Assembly: GCA_017470525.1 (NCBI GenBank)
Contig: JAFUYM010000026.1
Coordinates: forward strand, 33,419-97,418
DNA: 64,000 nucleotides
Source: Bacteroidaceae bacterium
GTDB lineage: Bacteria > Bacteroidota > Bacteroidia > Bacteroidales > Bacteroidaceae
Direction: 5' to 3'
The notes under the pieces: model-generated
Seen by the model: only the letters and a program-made list of their open reading frames with translations
What the model was told of the DNA's origin: nothing
Database searches by the model: none
Made by a program: the position numbers and the translations under genes
In this document: positions 16,555 to 54,084 of the stretch, piece by piece
Numbering within the stretch: position 1 is the stretch's first letter
How the letters are laid out: every line of letters starts with the position of its first letter

Positions 16555-16570
16555 TAAAATCGATTACATT

Positions 16571-17170: not shown

Positions 17171-17191
17171 TAATCCTAAATACTTACGATT

Positions 17192-27028: not shown

Positions 27029-27131
27029 CGGAAATAATTGATAATAGCCAATTGATCATTGATAAATTTACCTTTCGGGTCACTTTTTTGCTCAACTCCC
27101 CACTTTTTCCTACCTTTCCTCCCTATAAAAC

Positions 27132-27311
27132 AAAAACAAAAAAATTATCGGAACAAATTATCGTTAATTATCGGCAATTATCGTTTATCTTGCGCCGCAG
27201 CGCAAGAGCCTGCCCCATAAAATTATTTGCTCCTTCGCCGTCAAAACGGCTTGGAAAAACGATAATTGCCGATAATTAACGATAATTTGTTCCGATAATT
27301 TTTTTGTTTTT
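27132..27311. repeat. Perfect 55-bp inverted repeat (arms 27132-27186 / 27257-27311) with 70-nt spacer
   Basis: The left arm is AAAAACAAAAAAATTATCGGAACAAATTATCGTTAATTATCGGCAATTATCGTTT and the right arm is its exact reverse complement. Each arm holds four ATTATCG words at 10-13-nt spacing. The spacer contains the CTTGCGC-CGCA-GCGCAAG hairpin (27189-27206). Confidence 0.95.
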
Positions 27312-27390
27312 TCTTTGTCCGATGGAGGCGAAACTTCGGTATCAGGCAAATGCCTCTTCCACAGCCTCTTTTACAATGTTTCCACAGCCT

Positions 27391-27469
27391 CTAAAGGGGA
27401 GAGAGTCTTACCCTTCCAAGGGAGAGAGTCTTACCCTTTAAGGGGTGAGAGTCACTCCCCTTTAGGGGT
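27391..27469 (-). repeat. REP-like tandem hairpin array immediately after the last gene of the pilus operon (probable terminator)
   Basis: It has three ~22-nt units (GGAGAGAGTCTTACCCTT x2, then GGTGAGAGTCACTCCCCTT) and abuts the TAA stop at 27470-27472. It is the reverse complement of the array at 58166-58270. Confidence 0.85.
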
Positions 27470-36060: not shown

Positions 36061-36169
36061 CTTCTTTATCTTTAGCCCTTGTGGGCAATTTCTTTTCTTT
36101 TATACCTTTTTTCCTTCTTAGTACTTCCTCAGAAATGCTGAGTTAGCAATGCACTCGAACCGCAGGAGG

Positions 36170-39100
36170 TTATTTCACCATCAGTTTATGCTTGTTGACA
36201 ATATAGACACCTCCCATCGGAACTTGTGTCTCAATGGTTTCGCCTGGCTGGATCGTGAAGGAGGCTATGGTCAAACCACCCGTGTTGACAATGGTCACGT
36301 TGGTGGCTGTGCGGAGTGATGAGGTGACGCCGATGAGGTGCTTCTTGGTGTAGAAGGTCAGGCTGCCACTGGCTTCGCCTTGGGTCGGGTCATTGTCATC
36401 GAAGTCGAATGAGGTGTCGTCGCTCTTATCGAATATGATATGCTCTACCATTTGTCGAGGTTTTGCCGAGGCTGTACCCGCAATGAAGTATGGGCGGAAC
36501 GGAACGGCTGCTATAGCAGTTTCAGTCTTGTCGAAACTGCTGCCCTCTGTGTCGAGCAGATAGCCTTCCACCTCTTTGCTCAAATAGTTTGGCACGAAGG
36601 TGTAGCCATCCTTTGCCGCTTTTTTCATTTCGTCGTCGCTGACATGGATTGTCTCACCCTCTGCAGAAACGAAGGTGATGGTTTGTTTATCCAGTTTTTC
36701 AGGATTGCTCTCGGCTGTGGTCAAGGCTCTGAAGTTGCCGCTCAAGTCGAACTCATAGTAAGTCTGACCAGGGAATCCGATGAGGTAAGGTGTGTCGGCA
36801 GCCAGCAATGGGTAGCCATCATATTGGCGTGACGGCTGCTGATAGTAAGTTTGGTAGGTGTCACCGTTGAGGTCTTTCTGGGCGTTCTTGCTGTAGTAGT
36901 AGTCCCACAGGAAGGTGTTGGTCACCGTCTTGGGGGTGGTTTGTTGAGCGGGGTAATCGAACAGGGCAGTAAAGACATTGTTGTCGCTAATTTTCTTGCC
37001 CTTGTACTCCCGCAGCCAGTACTCGTGTCCCTTCAAACTGCCATCATAGAAGTGGGTCAACTCGCCCTTGTTTTGGGTGGTGACAAGTTCGGCGGTGAAT
37101 GGAATGCTGATTGCCTCCCAGCCCTTCGTCAGGTCAACGAAATTGTCTGGTGTGCGCTGATACCACATACGGTAGTCGCCCATGCGGTATTCGATAGGCG
37201 CATTGAAGTCTTCCTTATCAACGAGCATGTGGTCGTTGGGGGCAACATAGCCATCGTCTGCCAATTGCACTCTATGACCATGTATGTTGTCTTTATAGGT
37301 GTCCCATGGTGCCACTGTGCGATAGGTCGCACGGCGAGTCTCCACGTATGCCTCATCGTACAGATAAGTGCCTACCACATTGTCTGTCTGTGTGTCGGCT
37401 TTGGTATAGACGAGCAGGTTTTTGGTCAGGTCAATGTTCTTGATGCTACAGATACCATTATCATCAAGCAGAGGTTGATAGAAAAGTTGCCCATTGAATC
37501 CTTGTCGATAGGTCGCATCGCCATATCCGGTGAAGTCAATCGCTGTCATGTTGGGGTAGGCTGTATGTGCTTTGTCTTTCGATTGAGCAGCCAAGAGCAC
37601 ATCTGGATTGAAGTGTACTGCCCCCATCTGCTTGCTTTGGAAATAAGCAGGTGCGCGATAGACACGGTTGTTACTTGTGATGTGTGTCGGCAACTCATCG
37701 TGTGACGACGATTCATCGTCTGGCTTCGTTGAATCTTGTGACGGCGTTGAGTAGTAGCCGTATGTAAGCCTCTGTCCGAAGAAGAGATAGTCATCAGGCC
37801 AAATCGGGGCATAGACAGGGGTGACAGCCGCACCTTCCGTTTGAGTTCTCATGCGGATGTCGCTGCTTTCAGGAAGTTTTCCGTTAGCATAGATGAAGTC
37901 CACGTTGGCATAGCGTCTCTCCACATAACCCAAGTCGCCGTATTGAGCATTGTCGCTGGTCAGAACAGGATAATAAATCGGACTCATTTCCTCCGACAAG
38001 GTGCCATCAGCGTTGGTGGTGAGGTAGTTGTATTCTGTATCTCCTGTCTGTTGGATGCCATCGTAGTAGCGGCGTTTCAGATAGAAGCCATTGAGGTTGT
38101 ATGCCACTTCGCCATTGTAGAAGGCTTGTGGTGTCTTTGGGATAGGTATGCCATAGTTGCTGCTGTGGTTGGTGTACTTGTTGGCAGCATCCTTTTCTTC
38201 AGCATAATAGCAGTTCACGATACGGTAAGGACGTGTATCGTTGAGGTTTGTAGGTTCGCCAAAGACGGGCTTGGTCGTCTTGGGTTCTGTGCTGGTGGTG
38301 CTTATCCAACAGTTTTCCACATAACCGCTACCTTTCTCTGCAATACCGGCTCCTGTGAATGTACCAGTGACTCCAAGGTTATAGACATCACTGCAGAGAG
38401 AGCCAAACAACGAGTGGTCAAGACCACTAATGGTATATCCGTCGCCATGGAAGGTACCAGCAAAGCATTGGGAATCATTGCCAATGGATGTCCATGAGCC
38501 AGGATGGTCAATGTCGGTGCGGAGGAAGAAATCAAGGTTCTCACCACCTTTCACATTTTCATTCAGCAAGGCGTGACCTTCGGTGGCTCCGCTGTTTGCC
38601 ACAGAAGTTTGGCAACTGAGGTCGAAGAAGTTCTTTAGTATGTCGAGACCATTCTTGTCGTCGTCACTATAATCGTTGATGTAGATTTTGCAGTGGCGCG
38701 TCAATTTGGCAGGGTCATAATCTACATACATGTGGTGCTCTGTGTCTGCCATCACGTTTGCCATGTCGTGGTAGTTTGCCACGCTGAGCGGCACGGAGTT
38801 GGAGTAGGTCTTGCCCAGATAAGTCTTGGCATAATAAGCCACGTAACTCCGTTGGTTCTGGTACCAATAGACTTGAGTCTGGTTGGGTGTGAAAGGTTTT
38901 CCGTTGCGGTGGTTTTCGGCATCGGTCTTATTGTCATAGATTTCCCATCCACCACCGATGATTTCGAAGGCACCTGGAATGATGGGTCGGGGTTCCTTTG
39001 TTCCCACGGTGTTTCCTGGCAGTACGGTAGATGGAGGTGTCAGTGTGCCGACAGATGGCACACCGCTCTCGAACTGTACGTGTATGTTGATGACGTGCAG

Positions 39101-42100
39101 TTCGTTGACCAATTCCACGTTCTCGCCAGAGTCATCACCTTCGTTGTAGGTATATTGATAGATGACACTATAAATGCGTTCCTTCGACAGGTCGTTGATG
39201 TCGCTTTCTCGTGCCACATAGAGTGTGGTAGTCTCAGTAGGCTCCATTCCCTTGATGAGGAAGTTCTTCTGCAAGTTCGGCAAGTTCTTATACTCTTCCT
39301 TGGTGATGAACGTGCCTTTAGGTATGGTGTTGCCTACATAGTATTTCTTGCTACCATCGAAGACATCTGTATAGACGACTTCATTTGTTCCATTTCGCTT
39401 CTGTTCATCCGTGTAACCACCTTTTTCGCCGACTACAAAGTCTTCTCGACAATAGAAGTAGTACACATATTCGTCGTCGTTTTGTGTGGTATTAAGGAAC
39501 TTCTGCACTTCTATGTATTCCTCTCTTTCTGTTCCAGTCAATGCTCGATAGACACTTGCACTGACAAGTTGTCCTACCTCGTATGGAATGTCGGCACGAA
39601 CAAACCGTTTCTTCACGATGTAGTAGTCTTCACCTTCATCGTTTATCAATTCAGCAGGAGTCTTCGTCACCTTGATGGGTGTGAAGTGATATTGCTCATT
39701 GGCAATATACTTTTCATAGTCCACATTTGTCAGTTCGGGGTTCGTCTCATTGACAACTGTAGGTGTCGTTTCTCCCTCTTTTGTAAAGGAGATGCTTGTC
39801 AAGTCATCGCTTGCCTGGAACATGGCAGTGTATTCCACTGGGTAGGTCTTGCAATAAGGTTCGCCATATCTGTACAACTCGCCATTATCGTTCAGACCGC
39901 CATTTTCTCCTGTTGTGCGTCCCCTGAAATCTGGGTCGATGAGCAGGTCAAACGCATCGCCATTGAATAGGAAGTGCTTTCGGTCTTCTGATGAGAGTGA
40001 GCACCATGAATCAATCGGGCTATAGTTCGTATTGCTGCTGAAGATTTTGCCGCCATAAAGACCTGCAGCATCGCAGTAGTAGGCAGGAGTCAGATAGCCT
40101 TGAATGAGTTCCTCGCCTTCTGCCTTCAGCCGTGCCTTTTCAGCATTTCTCTCTTCTTCTGTTGCTGTTTCAAATTTCTTTTCGTCGAAGTGTCCGTCCA
40201 CGTAGGTGAGTGCCAAATTCTCTATATCGGGGCTTGTCACTACATCGCCGACGAAGAGGTATGCATTTTCCGCAAGTTGTACGGTGTTGGTGCATACTTG
40301 AGCCTGTTCCAGTTTATTTTTGGTGCTCTCGTCAAGACGATTGTAGATGGTTTCAGAAATCGCTGTGCCTGAAGGGAATGTGCCCTCATGCGTTTCTCCA
40401 TGTTCATCAGTGTAAGAATATTCCACCTCATCCGTTTTGGCAGCATACGCCTTCACCACCTTTGCCTGTCCCTCTTGATTTTCCAGTGATTCTGGGTAAT
40501 TTTCGACAACGACTTCTGGAATGACCTCGCCTTGTTCATAGTAGCGTTGACCGTATGGCGTACTCTCTGTGGCTGTTGTACGGAAAGTGGGACCCTGTAT
40601 GTATTTGATGCTGTCTGCATGCGTTGTCAATGCCGCATAATCAGGAGTGTTGATGCTGCTGGGAGCACCCTCAATGAGCGAGTACCACTTGTTCCAGTCT
40701 TGAGGACTGTCCATCTCGAAGGTGAGCACATAGCCATTGGAAGAACTCATGTTGTTCGACGAATGGTACACCTCGTCAGCCTCCACCCATTGCTGTTTCG
40801 TTACATCATAGAGTGGATGCTGGATGGTGACAGATTGGTCATCAATGGTGACAATTTTTGCAGATAACCCGTTCACGAAATTATTGTATGCCGATGGTGT
40901 CATCACTTTTCCTGCCTTGATGGTGTCGGTAGATGTTTCAGACAGGGTGTAATCGGTTACGCTGACCTTCGTTTCTGGCACAAACACCTTTTGGTCGTTC
41001 TCGTTGAGTTGGCTGTAGTCCCAGTAACTGATGACATCGTTCAGGAGAACAGTTCTTGTGTTGTTTTCGATTTTCGTGCTGTCAACAATTGCTTCGGTTT
41101 GCTGACCATTCTTCCAATAAGCATAAAGATTAGGCTGCACGTTCAACAATGTCAGTCGTCCGTGAGAACCAGGCGTGATGGTGAGTGGGATTTTTTCTTG
41201 CTTAGGATAAGCGTTGGCACTTCCTGTGTAGGCTGAGATAATCTGGTCGTAGATGTAGATATTACCTTTGACGAACCAGTAGTGCGCCTTTGAATAGTTC
41301 TCTTTTGTTGGGTCGTATTCTGCATTGTTGGGGTAGCAATCGTCAATGATACGTTTATGGCTGTCGTGGATAAAGTTACCCGAAGTTTGAATGATTTCCA
41401 GGTTCTGTTCGTCGTAGGTGTATCGTTTGTAGGTGACAACGTTCTGGTTGTAGGGAGAAAGCGTGACATTCTCTGCATCTTCGTGGAAGGTGGGCGTTCC
41501 ATGTTCGTTCTTGGCATAGATATAGCCACCGCCCACTTCGTCAGTTTTGGCATTGATGAGGTCGAGTTCCACTACACCTGTGATGTAACCATAGTCTTTT
41601 TCATCCTTCGTGCTATTTTCGGTGGTCAGTTCGAGGAACACACCAGATGCCAATGCCACTTCGTTATGACAAGTTCCCACATTGCGTTTGCGGTTGTTGT
41701 GGTTGGTTTGCTTCCATTGGTAGTAGGTAGTCGTTCCGTCTGTGTCGTTGGTGTCGGAGGTGCGAACGTGTTCCATCTTCACGTCGCTACTCAAATTACC
41801 TAAATAATTCACCAAACTATAAATACCGAAGTAGTTTCCGTGTGACTTGCTTGCATCATCGGTATCATTCGCAGTGGTTGCTTGTGAATGGAGTGACAGT
41901 TCGCCCACACGATTGAGGGTGTAGCGCGTATAGTCAGCCACATCCACCACGCGGTCACGTGCTCCCATCAGCACGATACGAGAACCATACACACCGCACA
42001 AATCGGCTCGCTGGATGGTGTTGAGCAATCGACCTGCATAAATGGAGCAGACACCATCGGTTGTCCAATACTCATCACTTTGATACTCATCTTCCAAATC

Positions 42101-45100
42101 TTCATATTCCTCTTGGTAAATGGGGTCACCCACATTGTATGCTTTATGAAAGATACCATAATTATCCGTATAAGAAGCAATATACTTCTTGCAAGTATAG
42201 CGCAGACGGAAGTAAGCCTTTTCGCGGTCAGTTAAACGATAGTACTGTTCCAGAGGAATGGTTTGAGTCAGTCCATAGTAGTCGGTGCCGTAGTTGGCGA
42301 TGTGCAATTCGCGATAGCCATCGACCAACGACAAGTTGCCACCTCCATAAAGACCACCCACACGTTCATAACCCACCGTGATGAGGTCGCGATGATAGAC
42401 ATCGCGCAGAGTCGCCGTCACATTGCCAAACACGGTGGTGGCATTCGCATAGATTTGATCGGAACCTGACGACACATTGCCGCCACCGAATACTGCATTG
42501 TGGATAATGATGCCTGTATCGTCGAGTTTCGCCCACTTGGCTCGGTCACTTTCCAGTAACAGATGGTTGTATGCGTTCGTATTTTCAGTAACTCCACTGC
42601 CGATGTTGCTGATGTCGTTCTTGCCTTTCAGGGTGTTCAAAGTATCGGTAGGGACATATTGACCAGGCAGATAGTCATGACCGCCAATCGTCACCACACC
42701 TGTCACAGCAGTCTCCTCATCGTTTGTCTTGTCATCGTCGTTGTTGCGAGGATTGGTGATATCCTTCCATGTCTTCTTCACTTGGGCGTATGGCTCAATC
42801 ACCACCTTGCAGTCCTCCGTCAGGTGTCCGTCTTTTTTGTAATAATAGTGACCAGGAGAGCCCGTTGTCTCCGTATAGTCTGCTTCGCCATTGCCATACA
42901 CATAACCAATGTCGCCGCCACCAAACACGTTGCCGTAACCTTCGTCAATTCCATCGATGGTACCGATTTCACCGCCATGGATATAGACCTCCGTTTGTCC
43001 AAACACGTAACCATCCGTATAAAGTTCGTGTCCCACTCCGTATCTCAACTTGTTGTAGCCTTTGCCACCGCCAAACACGTTGCGCAACACATGACCGTTG
43101 TACATCTCAATATGTGTTCCGCCATGTCTGTAGATTTGGTCTAACTCGCGTATGACACCTGTTTTCTGTTTGGTTGCACCACGTCCTACTGTGGCGATTT
43201 CGCCACCACCGAAAAGACCATTGCGAATCACGCCACCATACACCTTGACATTGGTGTAGTCGCATGTGCTCAAGTCGTCGTAACCACCGCCAAATGCGTT
43301 CCCGCAGTCTTCCAGTCGAGTGTTAGGAGTTCCCAGAGGGTGGGTTTGGTCATGCCATGTTTCGTCGTAGATTTTCTCCTTATAAGGTTTTTGGGTATCT
43401 TGGGGGTCGTAATAATAGCCGATGTAGCCATTATTGATGGTGAGATTGGCTGTGCCATAGATGGAGCCACCTTCGCCACCACTAAAGGCATTACGTTGGA
43501 TGGCGGGCACACCTCTATAGTAAGTCAAGCCTGTCTCGTCCAAATCTCCACGAATACCGATGATGACATTTGTCACCGCAAGCACGTCGTTATCCCAAGC
43601 GGCACTGAGTGCCCCTTCATGCTTACCTACGTGACCCTGATAGCCACCACCATAAACATTACGTACTGTACCACCTTCGATATAGACATTGGTGCTTGCT
43701 GTGAAGGTCGAGTCGGTTTTGCTTTCATACTTGTTGAGCACGGAACCACCATAGCCAGAGCCGTAGAGGTCTTTGGCAACAGTGCCGCCGTGCAATCCGA
43801 TGTAGGTTGTTCCGCTGACATTGGCAGTAGAACCAAACCCACCACCATAACAATAGCCACCGCTAAGGTCCCCCTTGTAATAGTAGCCACTCACACTGCC
43901 ACCCTGATTGATGTTGACGTTGGTGTTGGTGATGCTGCCCAATCGGTTGGGTTTGACAAGTTTACTTTCTATTTTCTGTAAGTCTGCTTCGGTATAGTTA
44001 TCGATGGCTGTATAGAGTGTTTTCTCTTGTTCTTGCTCTTGTGCTTTCCATTTTGCAACAGATGCCTTGTTGAGCACCATGCCCGCATTGCCACCTCCGT
44101 ATGCTTCATAGACCTTTGCACCGTCGTTGAGGTTCACCACGGTATATTCTGACCAGGTGTCCTGACCATAACCTGCTCCAAAGACCGTTCCATAATATTC
44201 CTGCTCTTTATCATAGAAAACAGGAGCATTGATGTTGACAAAACTGTAGAGGGTGCGGCGGTAGTTGTTGTTACCACCATAAATACCATCACGATAATTA
44301 CCCACAAGTGCTTGGTTGCTGCTGAAATTTACATGGGCTTCAATCACATCGCAGGGTACGCTGTTCTTTATGCCGTATGCACCGCCAAAGATGCGGTTCA
44401 TCTGGATGGTAGAACCACTGGGCACATTGACCACAGTGCGCCTCGTGATGCCTTCCTCATAACTGGCACCGTAGGCTGCATTAATCCGCCCATGAACAAG
44501 GTCGATGATGGCTGAGGCTCTGTCAGGATTTTCTTCCACAGAAAGACCATCAGGATTCTCGTCGTCTTTATCCTTTTTGACACCCATGCCCAATCCACTC
44601 CAAGCACCTGCACCAAACACTTCCATGTTCTGATAGTTGTTGGTCATGTCTTGCGGAATGTCGATGAGCACATAACTACGTTCTTGCATTACGTCGCGGT
44701 CTCCGTCGCCAGGATAGCCCTGTCCTGCACCGTACACTTTTTCCACATAGTTATACTCGTTGGTTTTCAGTTCGCTGGTGGAAGTGGGTCGGAAATTGAT
44801 GAACGCATTGCCCATGCGAGGTTTGGTAAAGCCTTCCTTGGCATTCCCATTCTCATCAGTATATTGACGGAATTTTTCATCTTTATAATTATAGGTGCCG
44901 AAGCAGCCACCGAAGATACCTAACGCACGTCCTTGTCTATATTCTATGTATGCCGAAGCAGTCAGCACGTCGGGGGCAGTATTCCCAGGGTCTGTTTCTG
45001 TACTTGCCTGATAGCCATACACCATGCCCAGTGTCTCCTCATCGCGAACTTGGTCTTTGAAACTCTTTTCGTTCAAAATTCTACCACCCAAGTCATTGCC

Positions 45101-48067
45101 GCCATACACATAGTCGCGGATGTAGGGGAAGCCTTCGCTGAAACTGCCATCGTCATTGACTTGACGACCGATGTAGGTTTCTGAATGCCCCAAGATGTCA
45201 GCATTACATGCACCAGCAAAAGAGTTGAAGATGCGTCCTTGACCTAAGTTGATAATGGTGTTTCCGATGATGGGTCCTAAGAAACCGCCACCATACATGA
45301 ATTCGCATTCCGCCATGCTCTCGCTTTGGTCTTTCTGTTTCGACACGCCTGCATTTTTACCTCTCAGGTTGACGTAGCAACTGTATCTGGGGTCGTAACT
45401 GTAAATCTTATCGTTGAAGGAATAGTTGCCTTCTGTTTTAGGTCTGCCGATGACACCTTCCTCACTGCCACCAAATACTTGGAAGGTATAACCTCGATTC
45501 AGGTTAATCGTGGTGCTACCCCAGATTTCGGTGTCCTTACCTTTGCCGCCACCATACACATTGAGGGCTGTGCCGAGCACATCCATACCTTGCTGACCAA
45601 GAATGACACCTGTGCGACGTTCCAGAATGGTGTAATGTCCTTGATTTAAGATGTTGTCGCCATAGTTACTGGCTTCTCCCTCACTGTCTTCCTTTACTTT
45701 GTCGAAGAGCAGGTTGCGATTCACGGTGGTGGCATTCAGGTTGATGACCACATTTCCGTTCACGATTCCACTGGTATAGCAGCCACCATAGATGTGACCA
45801 CCATCCAAACGACGGTCAAGGTCCGCCTCCGTACTTTTCCCGTCTGCTGCAAGGGCGAGTTCTTCCGCTGTTGGGGTATATGGTTCGCCTGTACTGGATT
45901 TGATGATGTTCCATTCCAAATCTGTGCGGTCGGCATTCCATCGTTTGGGGAGAAATTGTACACCTAAGCCACCGTTGATGCTGTCACCTACGTTCAGTAC
46001 GAGTCGGTTTCTGATGTTGCCGTCCTCGTCAGTATAACTATAACCATCATCATTTGTTATCTGTTCGGCTGCCGTGCCAAGAATGCCGCCTTCGTAGCGG
46101 GCATTGAGTGCATTTCCGTTGGCATCTTTCTTTATTGGCACTATCGCATTGTTGCAGCCACCGACGATTTTATCATATATATATACGGGCACATTGAAGT
46201 TCATCGTGTCGGTGCCTTCATAGGTCATGCTGCCCACATTGCCACCGCAATAAAAGGAACCGATGGAGGTTGTGTATGGTATGTAAGTGGCAGGGTCTCC
46301 TTTGATTTGATTGTCAAAAGTGACACTGGGTATCAAATCCATAGCAGCACCTTTCATGTACTCGGCAAAGGTGGCTGGGTTGGTTAAATTCAAAGTGCTG
46401 AAATTCTCTTCTTCTCGGTATTTGGCAAGCAAATCTTCTGTCACCATGTTAGCACCGTTGTTGCCGAGGAAAACATTGTCGGCAATGACGTATGACCCAA
46501 CCTTCAGTTCGACGGTTGGGTGGCTCATGCCTGCCTTTCTTTTCAGTGTGGCACTATTTCCACCAAGGAAAATGCTACCATGAATGATGGTGTTGACAAC
46601 GACAGAATCTGTGGAATTTGCCTCTTTGGGCACTTTCTTTCCTGCTACGCGGATGGAGACCTGTTCAGCATTAGGGCGAAAAGCATTGAGGGCATCAGCA
46701 GAAGAAGTACCAGTACTTGGGTCGTAGTAGTAGTCACCATATTCAAGTGTTTCCTTCAAGTCTTCGTTGTCTGTATAGGGATAAGAGCCATTACCGCCGC
46801 CATAGATATCCCCTTGAATACTGGTATAAACACCGACAGCATTGCCACCCTTGACACTACCAGTGATGTCGTTGCCGCCATACACATTGTTGATATGTCC
46901 ACCTCTAACGAGCACACGGGCAGACAAACCTGCGGGGAACCTGTATTTTGCACTTCCATCCTCGTTGGTGTCAGACAGTTGGATGCTTGATTCAGCCACG
47001 TCGTCCCCATTTGCAGTCTTTGGGTGCACATCCGCTTTACGGCATCCACCATAGACATTGTCCACCATGATTTGAGAGTTTTCCAGAATTTCAAGCAACA
47101 AACCCTCAGGGCTGGTCATAGGACCTTCGTTACCACCGCTGTAAAGATTCTCAATATTGCCTTTCTCCAGATGCCAAGTAGGGCGGATATGCATCTCGGC
47201 TTTGTTGTTGCCACCGAACACTCGGGAGAAATGGTAGGTGTCTCTTAGGATAACATCTTCTAATACGGCAATGCCCATGTCCTTCAAACGCTCGCCGTTG
47301 TTTTTAATCAATAGATTGTTGTCTGAAGTTGCCCCTGTGGGGATGGCTGTCGTTACTTCACTGTTATTGTTGATGCAGATATCGGTGGCTGTAGTCACCG
47401 TGGCGTTGTTACCACCACCATAGAGGTAGGCAATGGTGCCACCTTTAATTTCAAGGTATGCCTTCCCCAGTTCGGGCTTTTCAACATCGTCCAAAGTAGT
47501 TGTCGTATGAACGAATGCCTCCTCATCTTCATCCCAAACCGAATCTGGAATGGTTGCGGTGTATTTCCCGTTCTCCTTTTCCACATAAGTATAGTCGCCA
47601 TTGCCTCCGCCGAAAAGGTTACCAATGAAGATGTGGTGAGGTTGAGAGGTGGTTGTTTCTCCCTCCTCGGTTTTAGTTTCTGTTTTTTCTGGGCTGACGA
47701 GAACAAAAGCACTGTAACTGTTGTCAATGTTGTTGGCAGCGGCTTCGGTGAGTCCTGTTGGCATCGCTGTGGAAGTTCCGATAGTTCCCGCAATGTCATT
47801 ACCTCCATAAACGGCATTGATAAGGATGTCATCACTCATATTTTCTCCGTCAATATGGACGAAGGCAGAACCCTCCACATTCGCTTGACGGGCACCTCCA
47901 AACACTTTCCCTTGAATGTTGCCACCACGGATGGTCACGCTGGTACTGCCACCAAGGTTGCCCGCATTGCCACCACCATAGACGTTGCCACCGATGGTAA
48001 TGGCTCTTTGTGCTTGCATGAATGATGCAATGAAGGTGAGTAATAATATGATGAGTATTTTACGCAT
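36170..48067 (-). CDS. Giant T9SS-targeted surface protein A (3965 aa): N-terminal [YF]GGG beta-helix-like repeats, long non-repetitive middle, GLUG-like module, T9SS type-A C-terminal sorting domain
   Basis: A single uninterrupted ORF. The signal peptide is MRKILIILLLTFIASFMQA|QR. About three dozen turns such as NVYGGGNAGNLGGSTSVTIRGGNIQGKVFGG are present. The GLUG-like module is CFAGTFHGDGYTISGLDHSLFG. The C-terminus ...NVTIVNTGGLTIASFTIQPGETIETQVPMGGVYIVNKHKLMVK fits the Por/T9SS CTD pattern. Confidence 0.85.
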   Translation of the reverse strand: MRKILIILLLTFIASFMQAQRAITIGGNVYGGGNAGNLGGSTSVTIRGGNIQGKVFGGARQANVEGSAFVHIDGENMSDDILINAVYGGNDIAGTIGTSTAMPTGLTEAAANNIDNSYSAFVLVSPEKTETKTEEGETTTSQPHHIFIGNLFGGGNGDYTYVEKENGKYTATIPDSVWDEDEEAFVHTTTTLDDVEKPELGKAYLEIKGGTIAYLYGGGNNATVTTATDICINNNSEVTTAIPTGATSDNNLLIKNNGERLKDMGIAVLEDVILRDTYHFSRVFGGNNKAEMHIRPTWHLEKGNIENLYSGGNEGPMTSPEGLLLEILENSQIMVDNVYGGCRKADVHPKTANGDDVAESSIQLSDTNEDGSAKYRFPAGLSARVLVRGGHINNVYGGNDITGSVKGGNAVGVYTSIQGDIYGGGNGSYPYTDNEDLKETLEYGDYYYDPSTGTSSADALNAFRPNAEQVSIRVAGKKVPKEANSTDSVVVNTIIHGSIFLGGNSATLKRKAGMSHPTVELKVGSYVIADNVFLGNNGANMVTEDLLAKYREEENFSTLNLTNPATFAEYMKGAAMDLIPSVTFDNQIKGDPATYIPYTTSIGSFYCGGNVGSMTYEGTDTMNFNVPVYIYDKIVGGCNNAIVPIKKDANGNALNARYEGGILGTAAEQITNDDGYSYTDEDGNIRNRLVLNVGDSINGGLGVQFLPKRWNADRTDLEWNIIKSSTGEPYTPTAEELALAADGKSTEADLDRRLDGGHIYGGCYTSGIVNGNVVINLNATTVNRNLLFDKVKEDSEGEASNYGDNILNQGHYTILERRTGVILGQQGMDVLGTALNVYGGGKGKDTEIWGSTTINLNRGYTFQVFGGSEEGVIGRPKTEGNYSFNDKIYSYDPRYSCYVNLRGKNAGVSKQKDQSESMAECEFMYGGGFLGPIIGNTIINLGQGRIFNSFAGACNADILGHSETYIGRQVNDDGSFSEGFPYIRDYVYGGNDLGGRILNEKSFKDQVRDEETLGMVYGYQASTETDPGNTAPDVLTASAYIEYRQGRALGIFGGCFGTYNYKDEKFRQYTDENGNAKEGFTKPRMGNAFINFRPTSTSELKTNEYNYVEKVYGAGQGYPGDGDRDVMQERSYVLIDIPQDMTNNYQNMEVFGAGAWSGLGMGVKKDKDDENPDGLSVEENPDRASAIIDLVHGRINAAYGASYEEGITRRTVVNVPSGSTIQMNRIFGGAYGIKNSVPCDVIEAHVNFSSNQALVGNYRDGIYGGNNNYRRTLYSFVNINAPVFYDKEQEYYGTVFGAGYGQDTWSEYTVVNLNDGAKVYEAYGGGNAGMVLNKASVAKWKAQEQEQEKTLYTAIDNYTEADLQKIESKLVKPNRLGSITNTNVNINQGGSVSGYYYKGDLSGGYCYGGGFGSTANVSGTTYIGLHGGTVAKDLYGSGYGGSVLNKYESKTDSTFTASTNVYIEGGTVRNVYGGGYQGHVGKHEGALSAAWDNDVLAVTNVIIGIRGDLDETGLTYYRGVPAIQRNAFSGGEGGSIYGTANLTINNGYIGYYYDPQDTQKPYKEKIYDETWHDQTHPLGTPNTRLEDCGNAFGGGYDDLSTCDYTNVKVYGGVIRNGLFGGGEIATVGRGATKQKTGVIRELDQIYRHGGTHIEMYNGHVLRNVFGGGKGYNKLRYGVGHELYTDGYVFGQTEVYIHGGEIGTIDGIDEGYGNVFGGGDIGYVYGNGEADYTETTGSPGHYYYKKDGHLTEDCKVVIEPYAQVKKTWKDITNPRNNDDDKTNDEETAVTGVVTIGGHDYLPGQYVPTDTLNTLKGKNDISNIGSGVTENTNAYNHLLLESDRAKWAKLDDTGIIIHNAVFGGGNVSSGSDQIYANATTVFGNVTATLRDVYHRDLITVGYERVGGLYGGGNLSLVDGYRELHIANYGTDYYGLTQTIPLEQYYRLTDREKAYFRLRYTCKKYIASYTDNYGIFHKAYNVGDPIYQEEYEDLEDEYQSDEYWTTDGVCSIYAGRLLNTIQRADLCGVYGSRIVLMGARDRVVDVADYTRYTLNRVGELSLHSQATTANDTDDASKSHGNYFGIYSLVNYLGNLSSDVKMEHVRTSDTNDTDGTTTYYQWKQTNHNNRKRNVGTCHNEVALASGVFLELTTENSTKDEKDYGYITGVVELDLINAKTDEVGGGYIYAKNEHGTPTFHEDAENVTLSPYNQNVVTYKRYTYDEQNLEIIQTSGNFIHDSHKRIIDDCYPNNAEYDPTKENYSKAHYWFVKGNIYIYDQIISAYTGSANAYPKQEKIPLTITPGSHGRLTLLNVQPNLYAYWKNGQQTEAIVDSTKIENNTRTVLLNDVISYWDYSQLNENDQKVFVPETKVSVTDYTLSETSTDTIKAGKVMTPSAYNNFVNGLSAKIVTIDDQSVTIQHPLYDVTKQQWVEADEVYHSSNNMSSSNGYVLTFEMDSPQDWNKWYSLIEGAPSSINTPDYAALTTHADSIKYIQGPTFRTTATESTPYGQRYYEQGEVIPEVVVENYPESLENQEGQAKVVKAYAAKTDEVEYSYTDEHGETHEGTFPSGTAISETIYNRLDESTKNKLEQAQVCTNTVQLAENAYLFVGDVVTSPDIENLALTYVDGHFDEKKFETATEEERNAEKARLKAEGEELIQGYLTPAYYCDAAGLYGGKIFSSNTNYSPIDSWCSLSSEDRKHFLFNGDAFDLLIDPDFRGRTTGENGGLNDNGELYRYGEPYCKTYPVEYTAMFQASDDLTSISFTKEGETTPTVVNETNPELTNVDYEKYIANEQYHFTPIKVTKTPAELINDEGEDYYIVKKRFVRADIPYEVGQLVSASVYRALTGTEREEYIEVQKFLNTTQNDDEYVYYFYCREDFVVGEKGGYTDEQKRNGTNEVVYTDVFDGSKKYYVGNTIPKGTFITKEEYKNLPNLQKNFLIKGMEPTETTTLYVARESDINDLSKERIYSVIYQYTYNEGDDSGENVELVNELHVINIHVQFESGVPSVGTLTPPSTVLPGNTVGTKEPRPIIPGAFEIIGGGWEIYDNKTDAENHRNGKPFTPNQTQVYWYQNQRSYVAYYAKTYLGKTYSNSVPLSVANYHDMANVMADTEHHMYVDYDPAKLTRHCKIYINDYSDDDKNGLDILKNFFDLSCQTSVANSGATEGHALLNENVKGGENLDFFLRTDIDHPGSWTSIGNDSQCFAGTFHGDGYTISGLDHSLFGSLCSDVYNLGVTGTFTGAGIAEKGSGYVENCWISTTSTEPKTTKPVFGEPTNLNDTRPYRIVNCYYAEEKDAANKYTNHSSNYGIPIPKTPQAFYNGEVAYNLNGFYLKRRYYDGIQQTGDTEYNYLTTNADGTLSEEMSPIYYPVLTSDNAQYGDLGYVERRYANVDFIYANGKLPESSDIRMRTQTEGAAVTPVYAPIWPDDYLFFGQRLTYGYYSTPSQDSTKPDDESSSHDELPTHITSNNRVYRAPAYFQSKQMGAVHFNPDVLLAAQSKDKAHTAYPNMTAIDFTGYGDATYRQGFNGQLFYQPLLDDNGICSIKNIDLTKNLLVYTKADTQTDNVVGTYLYDEAYVETRRATYRTVAPWDTYKDNIHGHRVQLADDGYVAPNDHMLVDKEDFNAPIEYRMGDYRMWYQRTPDNFVDLTKGWEAISIPFTAELVTTQNKGELTHFYDGSLKGHEYWLREYKGKKISDNNVFTALFDYPAQQTTPKTVTNTFLWDYYYSKNAQKDLNGDTYQTYYQQPSRQYDGYPLLAADTPYLIGFPGQTYYEFDLSGNFRALTTAESNPEKLDKQTITFVSAEGETIHVSDDEMKKAAKDGYTFVPNYLSKEVEGYLLDTEGSSFDKTETAIAAVPFRPYFIAGTASAKPRQMVEHIIFDKSDDTSFDFDDNDPTQGEASGSLTFYTKKHLIGVTSSLRTATNVTIVNTGGLTIASFTIQPGETIETQVPMGGVYIVNKHKLMVK

Positions 48068-51217: not shown

Positions 51218-52330
51218 TTATAAATGTGGAGTAAACTCTGAACCTTCCTTCCAATTGAGTTTCACGCTGGCGGCAACCTCTTGGTCGTCTGTCTTGACTA
51301 CACCTTTTTCGTCCAACCAGCACTTGATGATTTTCAATTGTCCACCGCGCAAAGGCTCTTTGATGCCCAAGCGCGTTTCTGTGATGGTGCCATCAGCGCA
51401 AGGTACGTATGTACGGAACTCCCACAGTGTTTCTTCATCTGCCTCGGCAACAAAAGCATCTGTCGTCTCAATGATGGTGCGTGTATTGCCATGAGCAGCA
51501 TGTTCGCGTGAAGGGAACGTCACGGAGCAGAAGGCTGTGAGGTTGCTTTCTTCAGACGTGATGGTCTGTGTGCGTACGATGGGTGACTGTTTGGGATAGG
51601 AGAAAATGCTGTCAGCCACCTGAAACGCAGTAGCGAATCCCGTGCTGAAAACACGCATTCCATCCATATTTTTTCCTCTGGGGTCGAGCACGAGTGCGGC
51701 AGCACAATTTGCCATATAGAGCCGCACGTTAAACTTCTGGTCGATGCCTTCCACAACCTCCATGGGTTGGCGGGCGGTGAAAAGTCCCGTAGTGTGCGAG
51801 GAAATTGTGTCGATGCCTGTTGATGAAGCCAGCGTTTGCCCTTTCTGATAGAGTTGTGATGTGTGGCAAACCTCATCCTTTTCAAGTGAGACAAGTGGGT
51901 TGTTCACCACGTTGGCAACAGCCAAGTGCATGTACTGCCGCATGGGCAGATAAAGCGTGTAACTGGCTTGATTGGCATTCATGATGTGCTCATCGTGCTG
52001 CAAACGAAGAGAGTCACCTTCGGTTTCGTAGAACGAAAGGTCAATGTCGTGGGCAAAGTCCGTGAAGATGCCGCTCAAGTGTGTACGTAAGGCATTGGCG
52101 ATGGTCACTTCTGTTTGCGTCGTCAGTTCCGTTTGCAACTCTGTACTGATGTTGGTCACCAGTTGTAGTTCATAGTTCAACTGGTAGTCATTTCCACAGT
52201 CGCTCAAGTCATCATCAATGGAAGAACAGCCTGTTATGAGCGTAAGCAGCAACGAGAGGACACACACCATCGGTATGTGTCTCTCGTGCTTCAATTCGTA
52301 TGTTTTTTTCACGCTCATAACAACGCTCAT
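51218..52330 (-). CDS. FimB/Mfa2-family fimbrial anchor/length-regulator subunit
   Basis: The start was placed at the Met at 52330, 2 nt after the upstream stop. The lipobox is LITGC|SSIDDDLSDC, followed by NYELQLVTN... as in Mfa2-type proteins. Its ~370-aa size and its position after the Mfa1-like genes fit the call. Confidence 0.6.
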   Translation of the reverse strand: MSVVMSVKKTYELKHERHIPMVCVLSLLLTLITGCSSIDDDLSDCGNDYQLNYELQLVTNISTELQTELTTQTEVTIANALRTHLSGIFTDFAHDIDLSFYETEGDSLRLQHDEHIMNANQASYTLYLPMRQYMHLAVANVVNNPLVSLEKDEVCHTSQLYQKGQTLASSTGIDTISSHTTGLFTARQPMEVVEGIDQKFNVRLYMANCAAALVLDPRGKNMDGMRVFSTGFATAFQVADSIFSYPKQSPIVRTQTITSEESNLTAFCSVTFPSREHAAHGNTRTIIETTDAFVAEADEETLWEFRTYVPCADGTITETRLGIKEPLRGGQLKIIKCWLDEKGVVKTDDQEVAASVKLNWKEGSEFTPHL

Positions 52331-52332
52331 GA

Positions 52333-54084
52333 TTAGAGGTCCTTCGTGAATGTGATACCTGCTTGCCATTCGAGGTTGACAGAGAAGGCAACCTCCAATT
52401 GTGGAGTCTTCAAATCGGGAATCACATTGTAAGCAGCACCAAGTCCATTGCTGTTGTTGGCTCCTAATGTTCCCTTGCTAATCGTGAACAAAGCCTTCGT
52501 GATATAATCCTGTTCAAAGACTTTCTTCCGGTTATTTGGATTGGTGATTTCGTCTGTTTTCTCCAGATTAAGTACGCCAACAAGATAGAATTTGCCGCCA
52601 GCAGGAACGATACCGTCTTTGCCTGCAAAGTCTTGACCCGTATTGTTGGTCATTTCCACGGCGACATTCACTTGTTTCATGTCTTCAGCAGTTTCCAACA
52701 CCAAAGTGTGATTAGTTCCAGTGGGACCATCTACCGTTGCAGCGAAATTGCCGTTAATCACTTTATCGTAGATAGTGTATTCTTTAGATGTTGCGATGGG
52801 TGCGAACTGGAAGTTTACATTCTTTTGGTGACCGACAAGGACTGCAGAGATTGGGAAACCGTCACTGTTGACCGTCACGGCTTCACCCTTCGCATCGTAA
52901 AGCGTCTCACCGTCCGTTTGTACTTGCAAATCCAGGCGTCCTACGGCATATTGTATTTGGTTCTGCAAAGCGATAGAGCGAGTGTTACCTGTTACCTTCT
53001 GTCCCCAGTTGTAGAGATTGGCTTCTAAAATTGCCTGCCAAGTGAGACCATTGAATTGGTCGGATACTTTGTCGTTATTAGATGTACCGATTGCAGTGTT
53101 GGCGCGATAGCAAAGGGCAGCAGGGTAAGTGTAACTGTTGAGTGGAGATACGTACATGCCTTCGCGACCTCCCGTCACAATCGTGGGCTCTGTCCCCGAC
53201 CAGTCGATGGAGGCTGCACCATCTGGCAGGTTCAGGTTGGCAGGATAACCTGTCACCTTTTCGTTCACCAAGGTCACCTTATTGTCGCTACTGATGGTTG
53301 CATAAGAAATACCACCCTGTTCGATGATAGCCGCTCTTACAGCAGCAACTCCGGTTGCATCGTCTGTAATGGCACGTGCCTTGTCCCACAAGTGCTGAGT
53401 ACTTATTTCGATGCTGGCAGAAGAACCTGCCGTTGGCTGGAAAGCCACGAGATAAGCATGAAGGGTATGGTTGGTGACATTGTTTGCTACCGCGCGGATG
53501 CCCTTTACATAGTTCAATAGGGCTTCGGCACGTTCATTGACCGCACCCGAAGGATAGATGGGTTCCAAAGCGAAAGTATAGTTGGCGGCAGATTGGACAT
53601 ACTCCGTAGGAGCAATGATGGAGCCATTGTCGAATTTGTTCTCACCCGTCTTGATGGCTTGACCATATAGCATAAAGGCACCTGTGCCCACAGGAATGGC
53701 AAGGTCGTTATACACTTTGGCATTTTGCTTGCCTCCGTTATCGAAGGCTGTGAGGTTTGTCAATGTGTAAACCTTGTCTTGAAGGGGGCGGACATCAGGA
53801 TTGATGCTGGGCACAAATGTCTCGTATGGAATCAGTTTGATGTCTTGAATGCCACGGAAAACAGGAGTGACCTGTCCCTGCACCGTTGCAGTAGTCATAC
53901 GAGTATCGGTGGTGGTATGTGCATTCTCTGATAGTGAGATAGCCAGTTGTGTCTTTACCGTGTTCTCCACAGGGTCATAGTTGGGATTGTTAATGACCTC
54001 GTCCTCCGACGAACACGCTATGAATGTTGTTGTGCCTGCAAGTGCTATCGCGCTCGTCAAGGCAAATTCATAAAACTTTTTCAT
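52333..54084 (-). CDS. Mfa1-family fimbrial major-subunit-like lipoprotein (paralogue 2)
   Basis: 583 aa with lipobox FIAC|SSEDE and DTRMTTATVQGQVTPVFRGIQDIKLIPY. The C-terminus (EQDYITKALF...IPDLKTPQLEVAFSVNLEWQAG) is homologous to paralogue 1. Confidence 0.65.
   Translation of the reverse strand: MKKFYEFALTSAIALAGTTTFIACSSEDEVINNPNYDPVENTVKTQLAISLSENAHTTTDTRMTTATVQGQVTPVFRGIQDIKLIPYETFVPSINPDVRPLQDKVYTLTNLTAFDNGGKQNAKVYNDLAIPVGTGAFMLYGQAIKTGENKFDNGSIIAPTEYVQSAANYTFALEPIYPSGAVNERAEALLNYVKGIRAVANNVTNHTLHAYLVAFQPTAGSSASIEISTQHLWDKARAITDDATGVAAVRAAIIEQGGISYATISSDNKVTLVNEKVTGYPANLNLPDGAASIDWSGTEPTIVTGGREGMYVSPLNSYTYPAALCYRANTAIGTSNNDKVSDQFNGLTWQAILEANLYNWGQKVTGNTRSIALQNQIQYAVGRLDLQVQTDGETLYDAKGEAVTVNSDGFPISAVLVGHQKNVNFQFAPIATSKEYTIYDKVINGNFAATVDGPTGTNHTLVLETAEDMKQVNVAVEMTNNTGQDFAGKDGIVPAGGKFYLVGVLNLEKTDEITNPNNRKKVFEQDYITKALFTISKGTLGANNSNGLGAAYNVIPDLKTPQLEVAFSVNLEWQAGITFTKDL

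Follow-up and report, generated by a model that had tools for sequence, protein, structure and literature searches.

[quoted passage not shown] We assign to this reading, in which we infer T9SS export, cleavage, anchoring, adhesive function and association with a pilus, a probability of about 0.55; the ORF, its repeats, the family, the synteny, the absence of known domains and the predicted folds are what the analysis shows. The gene and its neighbors (Table 1) lie in a window of 64,000 nucleotides, the whole stretch of DNA that was analyzed, and the giant is among the largest proteins made by the cells that carry it. Prevotellaceae dominate the rumen, where little is known of how they adhere to plant particles, the host or other microbes. 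The family is present on 430 contigs of species-representative genomes, and the giant and most of its ~30-kb operon lack annotation. If a type V fimbria indeed contains the protein as a component delivered by the T9SS, the principle of Mfa5, in which a single appendage is served by two converging export pathways, would reach far outside oral Porphyromonas, with an adhesive module that is completely different from that of Mfa5 and far larger. Prevotella sp. tc2-28 is a cultured carrier of the family.

Table 1. The gene cluster of the giant in transcriptional order, with positions counted within the window.
Feature	Positions	Strand	Remarks
First cluster gene: DUF3575 beta-barrel-like domain, OmpA-like domain and TPR	56042..57580	minus	
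Two paralogous lipoproteins, 583 and 624 aa	52333..56000	minus	Candidate stalk subunits
Mfa2-anchor-like lipoprotein, 383 aa (366 aa as annotated)	51218..52369	minus	Orthologs match PF08842
Lipoprotein, 594 aa	49354..51138	minus	Paralog of the 624- and 583-aa lipoproteins; no family match
Lipoprotein, 398-418 aa	48104..49360	minus	Directly upstream of the giant; no family match
Giant ORF, 3965 aa (~436 kDa)	36170..48067	minus	GenBank MBR1667393.1
Sec signal peptide, residues 1-19	48011..48067	minus	FMQA/QR, Gln at +1; predicted cleavage site
[YF]GGG array, residues 27-1925	42293..47989	minus	28-31 HMM-detectable units of ~26-31 aa, with insertions; predicted beta-solenoid-like body
Non-repetitive central region, residues 1926-3089	38801..42292	minus	Thr/Tyr/Glu/Asn/Asp-rich; no family or PDB match
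Hypervariable stretch, residues ~2401-2900	39368..40867	minus	19-28 % identity
Conserved C-terminal module, residues 3090-3883	36419..38800	minus	Homolog clusters and model
Small beta-helix-like "GLUG-like" segment, residues 3177-3296	38180..38539	minus	Paralogous to the Peptidase_M26_N-matching segment of the neighboring giant
Disordered acidic linker DTSFDFDDNDPTQGEA, residues 3884-3899	36371..36418	minus	pLDDT <50; likely CTD cleavage site
Divergent type-A T9SS CTD (best reading), residues 3900-3965	36173..36370	minus	Seven predicted beta-strands; motifs B, D, E
Second giant ORF, 2601 aa	28255..36060	minus	Signal peptide; Fn3_assoc/CHB_HEX_C x2; [YF]GGG units
Last gene: DUF5106 and thioredoxin-like protein	27470..28255	minus	Start overlaps the stop of the second giant

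The giant protein and its C-terminal domain

The open reading frame consists of 3965 uninterrupted codons with an ATG start, and its product is identical to a GenBank entry named "hypothetical protein IJ693_03825 [Bacteroidaceae bacterium]". The original prediction had described a giant secreted protein with Gln at position +1, and both points are supported; its conversions of residues to nucleotides were correct as well. By eye, the N-terminus (MRKILIILLLTFIASFMQA followed by QRA) has the features of a typical Sec signal peptide, whose predicted cleavage leaves Gln at +1, as stated in the Bacteroidetes Q-rule for the residue exposed by signal peptide cleavage (PMC5837995), and the head AQ(A)/Q-I-x-I-GG-N-V-Y-GGG-N, where the slash marks the predicted cut, is common to about 70 full-length homologs. 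Neither the whole protein nor six segments of it gave Pfam or NCBIfam matches beyond noise at E ≤ 10, those to a PorU N-domain (E 0.11), an aminotransferase, PFK gamma and AcrF2 being rejected as chance, and none of the PDB sequence models matches any part of it.

A type-A T9SS sorting domain (CTD) had been predicted at the C-terminus, with the proviso that the call would fall if the Por_Secre_tail HMM gave no significant hit there. Neither this HMM (PF18962) nor TIGR04183 matches the whole giant, its last 146 aa or its last 1045 aa at E ≤ 10, and the GenBank name is not that of a T9SS sorting-domain protein. By that proviso the call formally falls for this protein, but a divergent type-A T9SS sorting domain remains the best reading of the C-terminus; the sequence evidence for it is sub-threshold throughout and is joined by family-wide motifs, seven strands and a structural match to RemZ. 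The strands are found in the last 62 residues of the AF2 model, which Foldseek aligns with the CTD of RemZ in the SprA-PorV translocon (8gl8_D; probability 0.98, E 0.03, TM 0.46, 23 % identity). Among PDB sequences, the family tail profile matches RemA best, at its C-terminal end (residues 1357-1394 of 1436) and below threshold, and PF18962 is touched, again below threshold, by 22 of the 42 ortholog tails (best E 1.3e-3), with no other family recurring. Across the alignment of these 42 tails, G66 and K96 never vary, and G88 and Y90 are nearly invariant. [quoted passage not shown] Where motif B has a Tyr, Val is found here and in most of the family. The 16 residues of low confidence that precede the domain likely contain the cleavage site, by comparison with the CTD cleavage sites located in linkers of other proteins (PMC11969387), and the D-P-[ST] motif of this linker is seen again in ortholog tails. 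No T9SS genes were found among the window ORFs scanned.

The same beta-sandwich might be a plain Ig-like domain, in which case the giant would be periplasmic or exported in another way, for example with the DUF3575/OmpA protein. The lack of a significant Por_Secre_tail or TIGR04183 match and the NCBI name "hypothetical" agree with such a reading, as does the second giant, which has the same repeats and no CTD and yet presumably must reach its destination. We nevertheless consider it rather improbable, given that the domain sits at the extreme C-terminus behind a disordered linker, that motifs B, D and E keep their places throughout the family, and that nothing but CTDs of Flavobacterium T9SS cargo matches it specifically in structure or sequence, with half of the ortholog tails touching PF18962 and no other family doing so repeatedly.

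Repeat array, central region and conserved module

The strict motif [VILFMA][YF]GG[GNCSA] occurs 25 times within residues 29-1906 of the giant and never in the other 2015 residues, compared with 0.38 on average and at most 4 in 1000 shuffles of the N-terminal part; a relaxed pattern has 36 sites. A repeat HMM built de novo from the units (consensus GNVFGGGNGASVYGDTTVNIN) detects 28-31 of them in residues 27-1925, against 0-1 in 20 shuffled copies. Of the other 69 ORFs in the window that reach 150 aa, the neighboring 2601-aa ORF is the only one in which it detects any. The spacing is 25-31 aa between adjacent units and ~57-68 aa or more across insertions. The motif, HMM and spacing counts therefore make "about three dozen degenerate 25-30-aa units", as originally proposed, a fair description. 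The claim that the array belongs to no curated family holds too, since Pfam and NCBIfam (E ≤ 10) and a search of PDB sequences with a 56-sequence profile returned nothing for it. Profile searches of PDB sequences were empty or at chance level (E ≥ 0.3) for the N-terminal 600 aa, and the Chlam_PMP, PATR, RTX, haemagglutinin, Hep_Hag, LRR, Flg_new and Pec_lyase-clan HMMs do not match the giant.

The AF2 model of residues 21-620 is all-beta, with a pLDDT of 93.2 and a pTM of 0.93, the latter indicating one rigid body in the predicted structure, and DSSP assigns three short strands to each of the first units. Foldseek with this 600-aa N-terminal model found no significant neighbor (best E 0.053 in PDB and 0.31 in BFVD, TM ≤ 0.27). 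Many of its weak long alignments (E ≥ 0.05, TM ≤ 0.27) are to beta-solenoids or beta-rolls, among them RTX proteins, Ag43, AlgE6-R, DUF4097 adhesins, HpmA, 7jvi and VacA. The right-handed parallel beta-helix suggested before is a possible reading of this confident all-beta model with its three short strands per unit, and the array is described here as a predicted beta-solenoid-like body. The GGxN/D turns and the RTX protein at the top of the Foldseek list brought calcium-binding RTX-like turns into consideration, whose nonapeptide pattern does not fit. A model of very high confidence that has no neighbor in PDB or BFVD recommends the first 600 residues for structure determination and for the definition of a new Pfam repeat or domain.

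The part that follows was correctly described as non-repetitive: self-BLAST found no internal repeats or duplications in residues 1950-3965, including residues 1950-3190, in which T makes up 9.4 %, Y 8.2 %, E 8.1 %, N 7.3 % and D 7.1 %. A profile of the central region found nothing above chance among PDB sequences (E ≥ 0.3). When 25 full-length homologs are compared, identity drops within residues ~2401-2900 to the values given in Table 1, against 40-60 % elsewhere. The conserved module beyond has 266 homologous clusters at 40-53 % identity and is modeled as a multi-domain structure (pLDDT 86.5). Foldseek matches of the 876-aa C-terminal model to alphavirus E2 and to chaperone-usher Ig-like domains were discarded as generic beta-sandwich hits of a multi-domain query (TM <0.1 of the query).

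Within this module, a GLUG-like segment had been proposed. The GLUG (PF07581) and Peptidase_M26_N (PF05342) HMMs do not match the giant at E ≤ 10, and neither family appears in the precomputed Pfam domains of 120 C-terminal homologs among the matches listed; the segment is nonetheless related to such modules through the neighboring giant. Residues 3177-3296 align with residues 467-589 of that protein (E 2e-5), a stretch that itself matches Peptidase_M26_N PF05342 (E 1.8e-10) and ZmpA (9e-10). In the model, the segment is a run of short strands at pLDDT >95, and the family profile A4 weakly matches 3n6z_A, a putative IgA1 protease structure (E 0.24). An HExxH motif was sought in the giant and is absent, and one homolog of the C-terminal module (P0052) carries a GDSL-type hydrolase domain.

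Such a protein could also be a secreted polysaccharide-active enzyme, a beta-helix of the pectate-lyase or glycosidase type that attacks plant cell walls. Beta-helices are common among enzymes that act on pectin, the lineage of the host degrades fiber in the rumen, the second giant has CHB_HEX_C/Fn3_assoc domains, which are associated with carbohydrate enzymes, and the hydrolase domain of P0052 points the same way. Against this, no lyase, hydrolase or beta-helix family matches the giant, Foldseek returned no such enzyme, HExxH is missing, and the size and the fimbria-like operon favor a structural or adhesive role, which makes an enzyme very unlikely. A predicted beta-solenoid of this size with a hypervariable internal segment and a two-partner-secretion haemolysin among its weak Foldseek matches further recalls the contact-dependent or polymorphic-toxin delivery fibers of the FHA/CdiA type, the variable part being the effector. 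The variable part of the giant is, however, internal and its C-terminal 900 residues are conserved, and toxin or immunity domains and a TpsB partner were sought and not found; we regard this reading as extremely unlikely.

The gene cluster and its distribution

The ~30-kb cluster, all genes of which are on the same strand and either overlap or are separated by gaps of 36-109 nt, runs from the DUF3575/OmpA gene through five lipoprotein genes, one of them Mfa2-anchor-like, to the giant and to a second giant with the same repeats. GenBank calls six of its nine products "hypothetical protein". A scan of positions 25000-37000 for sigma-70 promoters and terminators stayed at shuffle level, with no terminator-like site between the two giants, Bacteroidota promoters being outside the models of the tool. 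The second giant has a Peptidase_M26_N/ZmpA-like segment at residues 457-605 and 17-22 [YF]GGG units within residues ~1483-2578; it lacks a CTD and terminates in a Ser/Thr/Asp-rich tail.

An exhaustive phmmer search with the giant yielded 411 clusters at E ≤ 1e-3, about 70 of them full-length (3300-4700 aa) with the same head and tail, and the homologs are collinear with it along the entire length. The best 80 of the 430 contigs belong to ruminant-gut Prevotella, Prevotellaceae, Bacteroidaceae and Bacteroidales MAGs (one labeled "uncultured bacterium") and to the isolate Prevotella sp. tc2-28. The 418-aa lipoprotein gene adjoins the giant in 78 of these 80 related loci, the remaining cluster lipoproteins are found in 48-50, and a DUF3575/OmpA gene lies upstream within the 10-kb flank in 36; a gene of the second-giant type is also located downstream of the giant in loci L082 and L083. 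The original prediction was silent on this orthologous family with its hundreds of members, on the conserved operon and on the second giant.

All five products upstream of the giant have a lipobox. PF08842 (Mfa2, the type V pilus anchor) is matched by 8 of 22 orthologs of the 383-aa lipoprotein (best E 3.5e-6). The window copy has no Pfam match, and its family gave no NCBIfam match and nothing above chance among PDB sequences, which should presumably include P. gingivalis Mfa2 as entry 5NF3. It is through this one gene, with its 8 of 22 orthologs, that the cluster is linked to pili. The 583- and 624-aa lipoproteins share a nearly invariant Arg ~34 residues past the lipobox Cys; no fimbrillin family or structure was matched by the stalk-sized lipoproteins, three lipoprotein family profiles were empty or at chance level (E ≥ 0.3) against PDB sequences, and hhalign between the lipoprotein families aligned the signal peptides and nothing else detectable. 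[quoted passage not shown]

The giant may instead be a stand-alone T9SS cargo, anchored to LPS after CTD cleavage and acting as an adhesin or a surface-coat fibril, with neighbors that are co-regulated or form a separate structure. The evidence for the CTD serves this alternative equally, most type-A cargo is LPS-anchored (PMC10202324, PMC11969387), and the stalk-sized lipoproteins are not recognizable as fimbrillins. It is less easily reconciled with the very tight and widespread linkage that ties the giant to the lipoprotein gene before it (78 of 80 loci) and to the other genes of the cluster, with the Mfa2-like gene inside that cluster, and with a gene order collinear with mfa1-mfa5 (PMC8512630, PMC13655056). 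We consider the stand-alone cargo possible, at well below even odds.

Proposed role and comparison with known systems

In the preferred reading, that of a fimbrial component, the giant would be carried across the inner membrane by Sec, signal peptide cleavage exposing the Gln, and the divergent type-A CTD would take it through the outer membrane via the T9SS. The CTD would then be cleaved in the acidic linker near the junction of D-P-T and Q-G-E, by analogy with other type-A cargo. The N-terminal ~1900 residues, with ~30 [YF]GGG units, would form a solenoid-like rod, rigid and all-beta. The non-repetitive region comes next, its hypervariable center (~residues 2400-2900) being the likely determinant of specificity, and the conserved ~800-residue module, with its small beta-helix resembling the N-terminal part of IgA1 proteases, would adjoin the anchor point. 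The gene appears to occupy the "mfa5 position", that is, it follows DUF3575/OmpA, stalk-sized lipoproteins, a Mfa2-like anchor and two accessory-sized lipoproteins and precedes the second giant; it is this position in a conserved ~30-kb cluster that leads us to propose the giant as a T9SS-delivered fimbrial component. A more far-reaching and speculative reading, which we hold only tentatively, is that of an undescribed surface appendage of rumen Prevotellaceae, a type V scaffold with a 400-kDa T9SS-delivered rod at the Mfa5 position. In such an appendage, the [YF]GGG solenoid would be a fold class with no solved relative, and the CTD-less second giant would stack on the first solenoid-to-solenoid in a two-protein fiber with a hypervariable binding region.

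The proposed rod of short, Gly-turn-bounded beta-strand units resembles beta-helical adhesins such as Ag43, pertactin, chlamydial Pmp, FHA/HpmA and the RTX beta-rolls. These are exported by type V secretion or the T1SS, whereas the T9SS is the presumed route of the giant, which has no Pmp, PATR, RTX, haemagglutinin or Pec_lyase-clan HMM match and a TM of at most 0.27. Residues 3177-3296 are akin to streptococcal IgA1/ZmpA metalloproteases and to Bacteroides 3n6z, through the M26_N/ZmpA segment of the neighbor and the weak 3n6z match, but the giant has no direct HMM match, M26 catalytic domain or HExxH. Like SprB and RemA/RemZ of Flavobacterium johnsoniae, the giant is a very large predicted surface cargo with a C-terminal sorting domain, and its tail specifically matches, by structure and by profile, only the CTDs of RemZ and RemA; it differs in having no SprB repeats and no lectin domain and in its operon context. 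Prevotella are not known as gliding bacteria.

The closest parallel proposed here is Mfa5 of P. gingivalis, a CTD-bearing, T9SS-dependent, tip-located and polymorphic protein encoded by the last gene of the mfa operon, which is sometimes tandemly duplicated; some Mfa5 genotypes lack the vWA half, and the PDB holds the N-terminal part only (PMC8512630). [quoted passage not shown] On the other hand, both proteins far exceed the pilins in size and combine a Sec signal peptide and a C-terminal T9SS-type domain, which is a predicted one in the giant, with the lack of a lipobox, both have a conserved C-terminal half with a variable part elsewhere, both may be accompanied by a second large gene in tandem, and the giant, like Mfa5, comes after stalk-sized lipoproteins, a putative Mfa2-type anchor and two accessory-sized lipoproteins (PMC8512630).

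Repeat array and its predicted fold

The 3965-residue protein (hereafter the giant) is encoded by 3965 open codons beginning with ATG, and is identical to GenBank MBR1667393.1 ("hypothetical protein IJ693_03825", Bacteroidaceae MAG); it is also found on a Logan contig. The protein starts with MRKILIILLLTFIASFMQA↓QRA, apparently a Sec signal peptide whose +1 residue is Gln, and the head ..AQ(A)Q-I-x-I-GG-N-V-Y-GGG-N is common to about 70 full-length homologues, in agreement with the Bacteroidetes Q-rule (PMC5837995). Within residues 29-1906 there are 25 copies of the strict motif [VILFMA][YF]GG[GNCSA], with not one in the other 2015 residues, the mean in 1000 shuffles being 0.38 and the maximum 4. 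The units were used to build an HMM (consensus GNVFGGGNGASVYGDTTVNIN), which detects 28-31 of them in residues 27-1925, with 0-1 in shuffled copies, and its sole match among the other 69 window ORFs of at least 150 aa is the neighboring 2601-aa ORF, with 17-22 units in the C-terminal half. Residues 1950-3965 contain no internal duplication, and the central region is rich in Thr, Tyr, Glu, Asn and Asp. Because the ORF, the repeat counts, the composition and the lack of duplication all agree with it, the original description of the sequence, from signal peptide and repeats to the non-repetitive remainder, was correct.

The whole protein had no match in Pfam-A or NCBIfam at E<=1, and six segments of it, among them the final 146 residues and the "GLUG" stretch, yielded only a few chance-level matches at E<=10; Por_Secre_tail, TIGR04183, GLUG, Chlam_PMP, PATR, RTX, LRR and the pectate-lyase clan were all absent. 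Among PDB sequences, nothing significant was found for profiles of the N-terminal 600 and C-terminal 876 residues or, with a single-sequence query, for the central region. These searches bear out the claim that the [YF]GGG repeats lie outside any curated family.

The AlphaFold2 model of residues 21-620 (56-sequence alignment; mean pLDDT 93.2, pTM 0.93) consists mostly of beta-strand and coil, with occasional short helices. For the first units, DSSP assigns three short strands per ~26 residues, one on x-V-[YF] immediately preceding the GG(G) turn, one on N-[LV] (two residues) and one on T-x-V-x-I, as expected of a three-sided solenoid coil; insertions are modeled as longer hairpins (e.g., model residues 149-213). 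The prediction of a solenoid-like rod appears well founded, and its coils may form the right-handed parallel beta-helix that the repeat spacing would suit. Foldseek found no match for this model in PDB or BFVD at E<=1e-3, so the modeled array is apparently devoid of a close solved relative. Many of the weak, long PDB alignments, all with TM<=0.27, are to beta-solenoids or beta-rolls (CyaA RTX, Ag43, the AlgE6 R-module, DUF4097 "putative adhesins", HpmA, the beta-helix 7jvi from capybara, VacA, an ice-binding protein). As alternative functions, a polysaccharide-active beta-helix enzyme is very improbable and a toxin-delivery fiber still more so.

C-terminal domain and GLUG-like segment

A type-A sorting domain (C-terminal domain, CTD, of the Por_Secre_tail/TIGR04183 kind) had also been predicted, with a Por_Secre_tail HMM match as its criterion; the C-terminus has none, which formally refutes the call. 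Despite this null result, four independent lines favor a divergent type-A CTD. The tails of 42 orthologues share the pattern L-x-I...I-x-V-x-S...V-R-I-V-N-x-x-G...F-T-I-Q-P-G-E-T-V-E-T...G-V-Y-I-V...K-K-x-x-V-K, in which the motif B Gly and the motif E Lys are invariant and the motif D GxY nearly so (motif definitions in PMC11969387). PF18962 is matched by 22 of these tails (best E 1.3e-3), and, noise such as PF08139 (LPAM_1) aside, no other family appears in more than one. The best PDB match of the tail profile is the C-terminal end of RemA, a Flavobacterium T9SS cargo (residues 1357-1394 of 1436, E 0.55). In the AlphaFold2 model of the C-terminal 876 residues (alignment of 75 sequences; pLDDT 86.5, pTM 0.82), the final 62 residues form seven strands preceded by a 16-residue acidic linker, DTSFDFDDNDPTQGEA, with pLDDT<50, resembling type-A CTDs, in which seven strands follow a flexible linker with the cleavage site (PMC11285876, PMC11969387); Foldseek aligns this domain with 8gl8 chain D, the CTD of RemZ trapped inside the SprA-PorV translocon (probability 0.98, target TM 0.46, 23 % identity). 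The alternative that the Ig-like C-terminal domain is not a secretion signal agrees with the silent HMM and is improbable given the conserved tail and the likeness to RemZ. Export of the giant by T9SS is likely; a scan of the window ORFs revealed no T9SS gene.

The GLUG-like module of the original prediction holds as a resemblance and not as family membership, the stretch having no direct HMM match. Residues 3177-3296, modeled as a run of short strands with pLDDT>95, align (E 2e-5) with residues 467-589 of the 2601-aa protein, which match Peptidase_M26_N (1.8e-10) and NCBIfam ZmpA (9e-10), and the best PDB match for the profile of the C-terminal 876 residues, which include the conserved C-terminal module (residues 3090-3883), is 3n6z_A, a "putative immunoglobulin A1 protease" (E 0.24).

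Family, variability and hosts

An exhaustive phmmer search of 1.84 billion representatives with residues 21-1200 yielded 411 clusters at E<=1e-3, 218 of them at E<=1e-30; about 70 are proteins of 3300-4700 aa with the same head and tail. Homologous clusters number 296 for the N-terminal 600 aa and 266 for the C-terminal 876 aa. In a MAFFT alignment, 26 full-length members are collinear end to end with 40-60 % identity per 100-residue block, except for a hypervariable stretch at ~2400-2900 of the giant (19-28 %). All named homologues are "hypothetical protein", and a precomputed Pfam domain is present in one of the 240 listed matches. These matches do not exceed ~1530 aa, versus many ~4000-aa members in the representative library; they appear to be fragmentary, having come from contigs that are short or broken, so that their lengths are not protein sizes. 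One 1348-aa homologue of the C-terminal module, P0052, on a short contig, carries a precomputed GDSL-type lipase/esterase domain (PF13472) upstream of the module, a hint from sequence that some family members may include an enzyme domain.

A relative is encoded on 430 contigs of the GTDB species-representative genomes. Gut samples of ruminants (roe deer, sheep, goat, yak, buffalo, cattle) are the source of the best 80, whose labels read Prevotella, Prevotellaceae, Bacteroidaceae or Bacteroidales, one being only "uncultured bacterium"; the single cultured strain among them is Prevotella sp. tc2-28. Three MAGs, RGIG4948 (loci L048/L049), RUG12526 (L026/L041) and RUG14468 (L018/L068), each have two separate loci with a relative of the N-terminus, hence the system can exceed one copy per genome. 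On metagenome contig L083, a 1214-aa ORF (10001-13645) comprises the conserved C-terminal module only, and directly before it, on the other strand (1-9900), lies a phage- or mobile-element-like block (VapE, DNA polymerase A, PDDEXK nuclease, MerR); an insertion may have disrupted the giant gene at this site.

Gene cluster and possible likeness to Mfa fimbriae

The genomic context changes the reading of the giant, which is one of nine co-directional genes running from 57580 down to 27470 (-) with gaps of 36-109 nt or overlaps.

Genes of the cluster and other features of the window
Feature	Position	Strand	Description
Gene 1		-	DUF3575 + OmpA + TPR protein
Genes 2-3		-	Paralogous lipoproteins, 624 and 583 aa
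Gene 4		-	Lipoprotein, 383 aa (366 as annotated)
Gene 5		-	Lipoprotein, 594 aa, third paralogue of the 624/583-aa pair
Gene 6		-	Lipoprotein, 418 aa (398 or 402 as called)
Gene 7	36170..48067	-	Giant, 3965 aa
Gene 8	28255-36060	-	Second giant, 2601 aa
Gene 9	27470-28255	-	DUF5106/thioredoxin-like; start on stop codon of gene 8
ORF pair	13866-14657	-	137 and 120 aa, adjacent, just downstream of groES/groEL
Low-GC island	15655-17662	+	Three small proteins (299, 247, 156 aa), signal-peptide-like N-termini

In the second giant, too, the signal peptide is followed by Gln (AWG↓QSG), and its [YF]GGG units lie at the C-terminal end, followed by the tail ...TTTSGTNSDSDSNTDSTSEP; it lacks a C-terminal sorting domain. 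In two further loci, the protein downstream of the giant combines Fn3_assoc/CHB_HEX_C with Peptidase_M26_N. The product of the thioredoxin-like gene may be a dedicated thiol-disulfide oxidoreductase of the cluster; the first giant contains 31 Cys. Elsewhere in the window, the island has 35-42 % GC (~48 % elsewhere) and its first protein had no Pfam match; the second ORF of the pair near groES/groEL has an HTH-like C-terminal half, so that by eye the two resemble a HigB/HigA-like toxin-antitoxin pair.

All five cluster lipoproteins possess a lipobox Cys. Searched against Pfam, NCBIfam and PDB sequences, they had no match, with one exception: among 22 orthologues of the 383-aa lipoprotein, 53-70 % identical to the window copy, 8 match Pfam PF08842 (Mfa2), the family of type V pilus anchors (best E 3.5e-6). 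The 624/583/594 family has a nearly invariant Arg ~34 residues past the lipobox Cys, presumably where type V pilins are cleaved. By tblastn, the gene immediately upstream of the giant encodes the 418-aa lipoprotein in 78 of 80 related loci; the other lipoproteins are found in 48-50 of these loci, and the DUF3575 protein, within a 10-kb flank, in 36. Along the cluster, stalk-sized lipoproteins are followed by an Mfa2-like anchor, a pair of accessory-sized lipoproteins, a large protein with a CTD and another large protein, an order that runs parallel to mfa1-mfa2-mfa3-mfa4-mfa5(-mfa5-2) in P. gingivalis. Of the fimbrial components in that species, Mfa5 alone bears a CTD; it requires T9SS and is located at the fimbrial tip; its C-terminal half is conserved, the remainder is polymorphic, and it is often tandemly duplicated (PMC8512630; for the operon logic, see also PMC13655056).

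We tentatively propose, with a probability of roughly 45 %, that the giant associates with a type V-like fimbria made of the upstream lipoproteins. After Sec export and removal of the signal peptide before Gln20, T9SS would recognize the CTD and, by analogy, the acidic linker would be cut, perhaps at D-P-T↓Q-G-E. The mature protein of ~3880 residues would then be displayed, its N-terminal ~1900 residues as a rigid rod of ~15 nm plus insertions (~30 coils at ~4.8 A per coil), its hypervariable center as the probable ligand-specific part, and its conserved C-terminal module adjoining the attachment point. A stand-alone LPS-anchored adhesin, which would share the CTD, is unlikely in view of the near-constant position of the 418-aa lipoprotein gene and the Mfa2-like neighbor.

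There are precedents for T9SS cargo of large size, for beta-solenoid adhesins and for the Mfa5 arrangement. What is new is the family of the giant, with no curated domain over 3965 residues, an N-terminal fold that is confidently predicted and would have no solved neighbor, the partner giant, and the position of the giant within a fimbria-like operon, which is conserved in hundreds of species of rumen Prevotellaceae.
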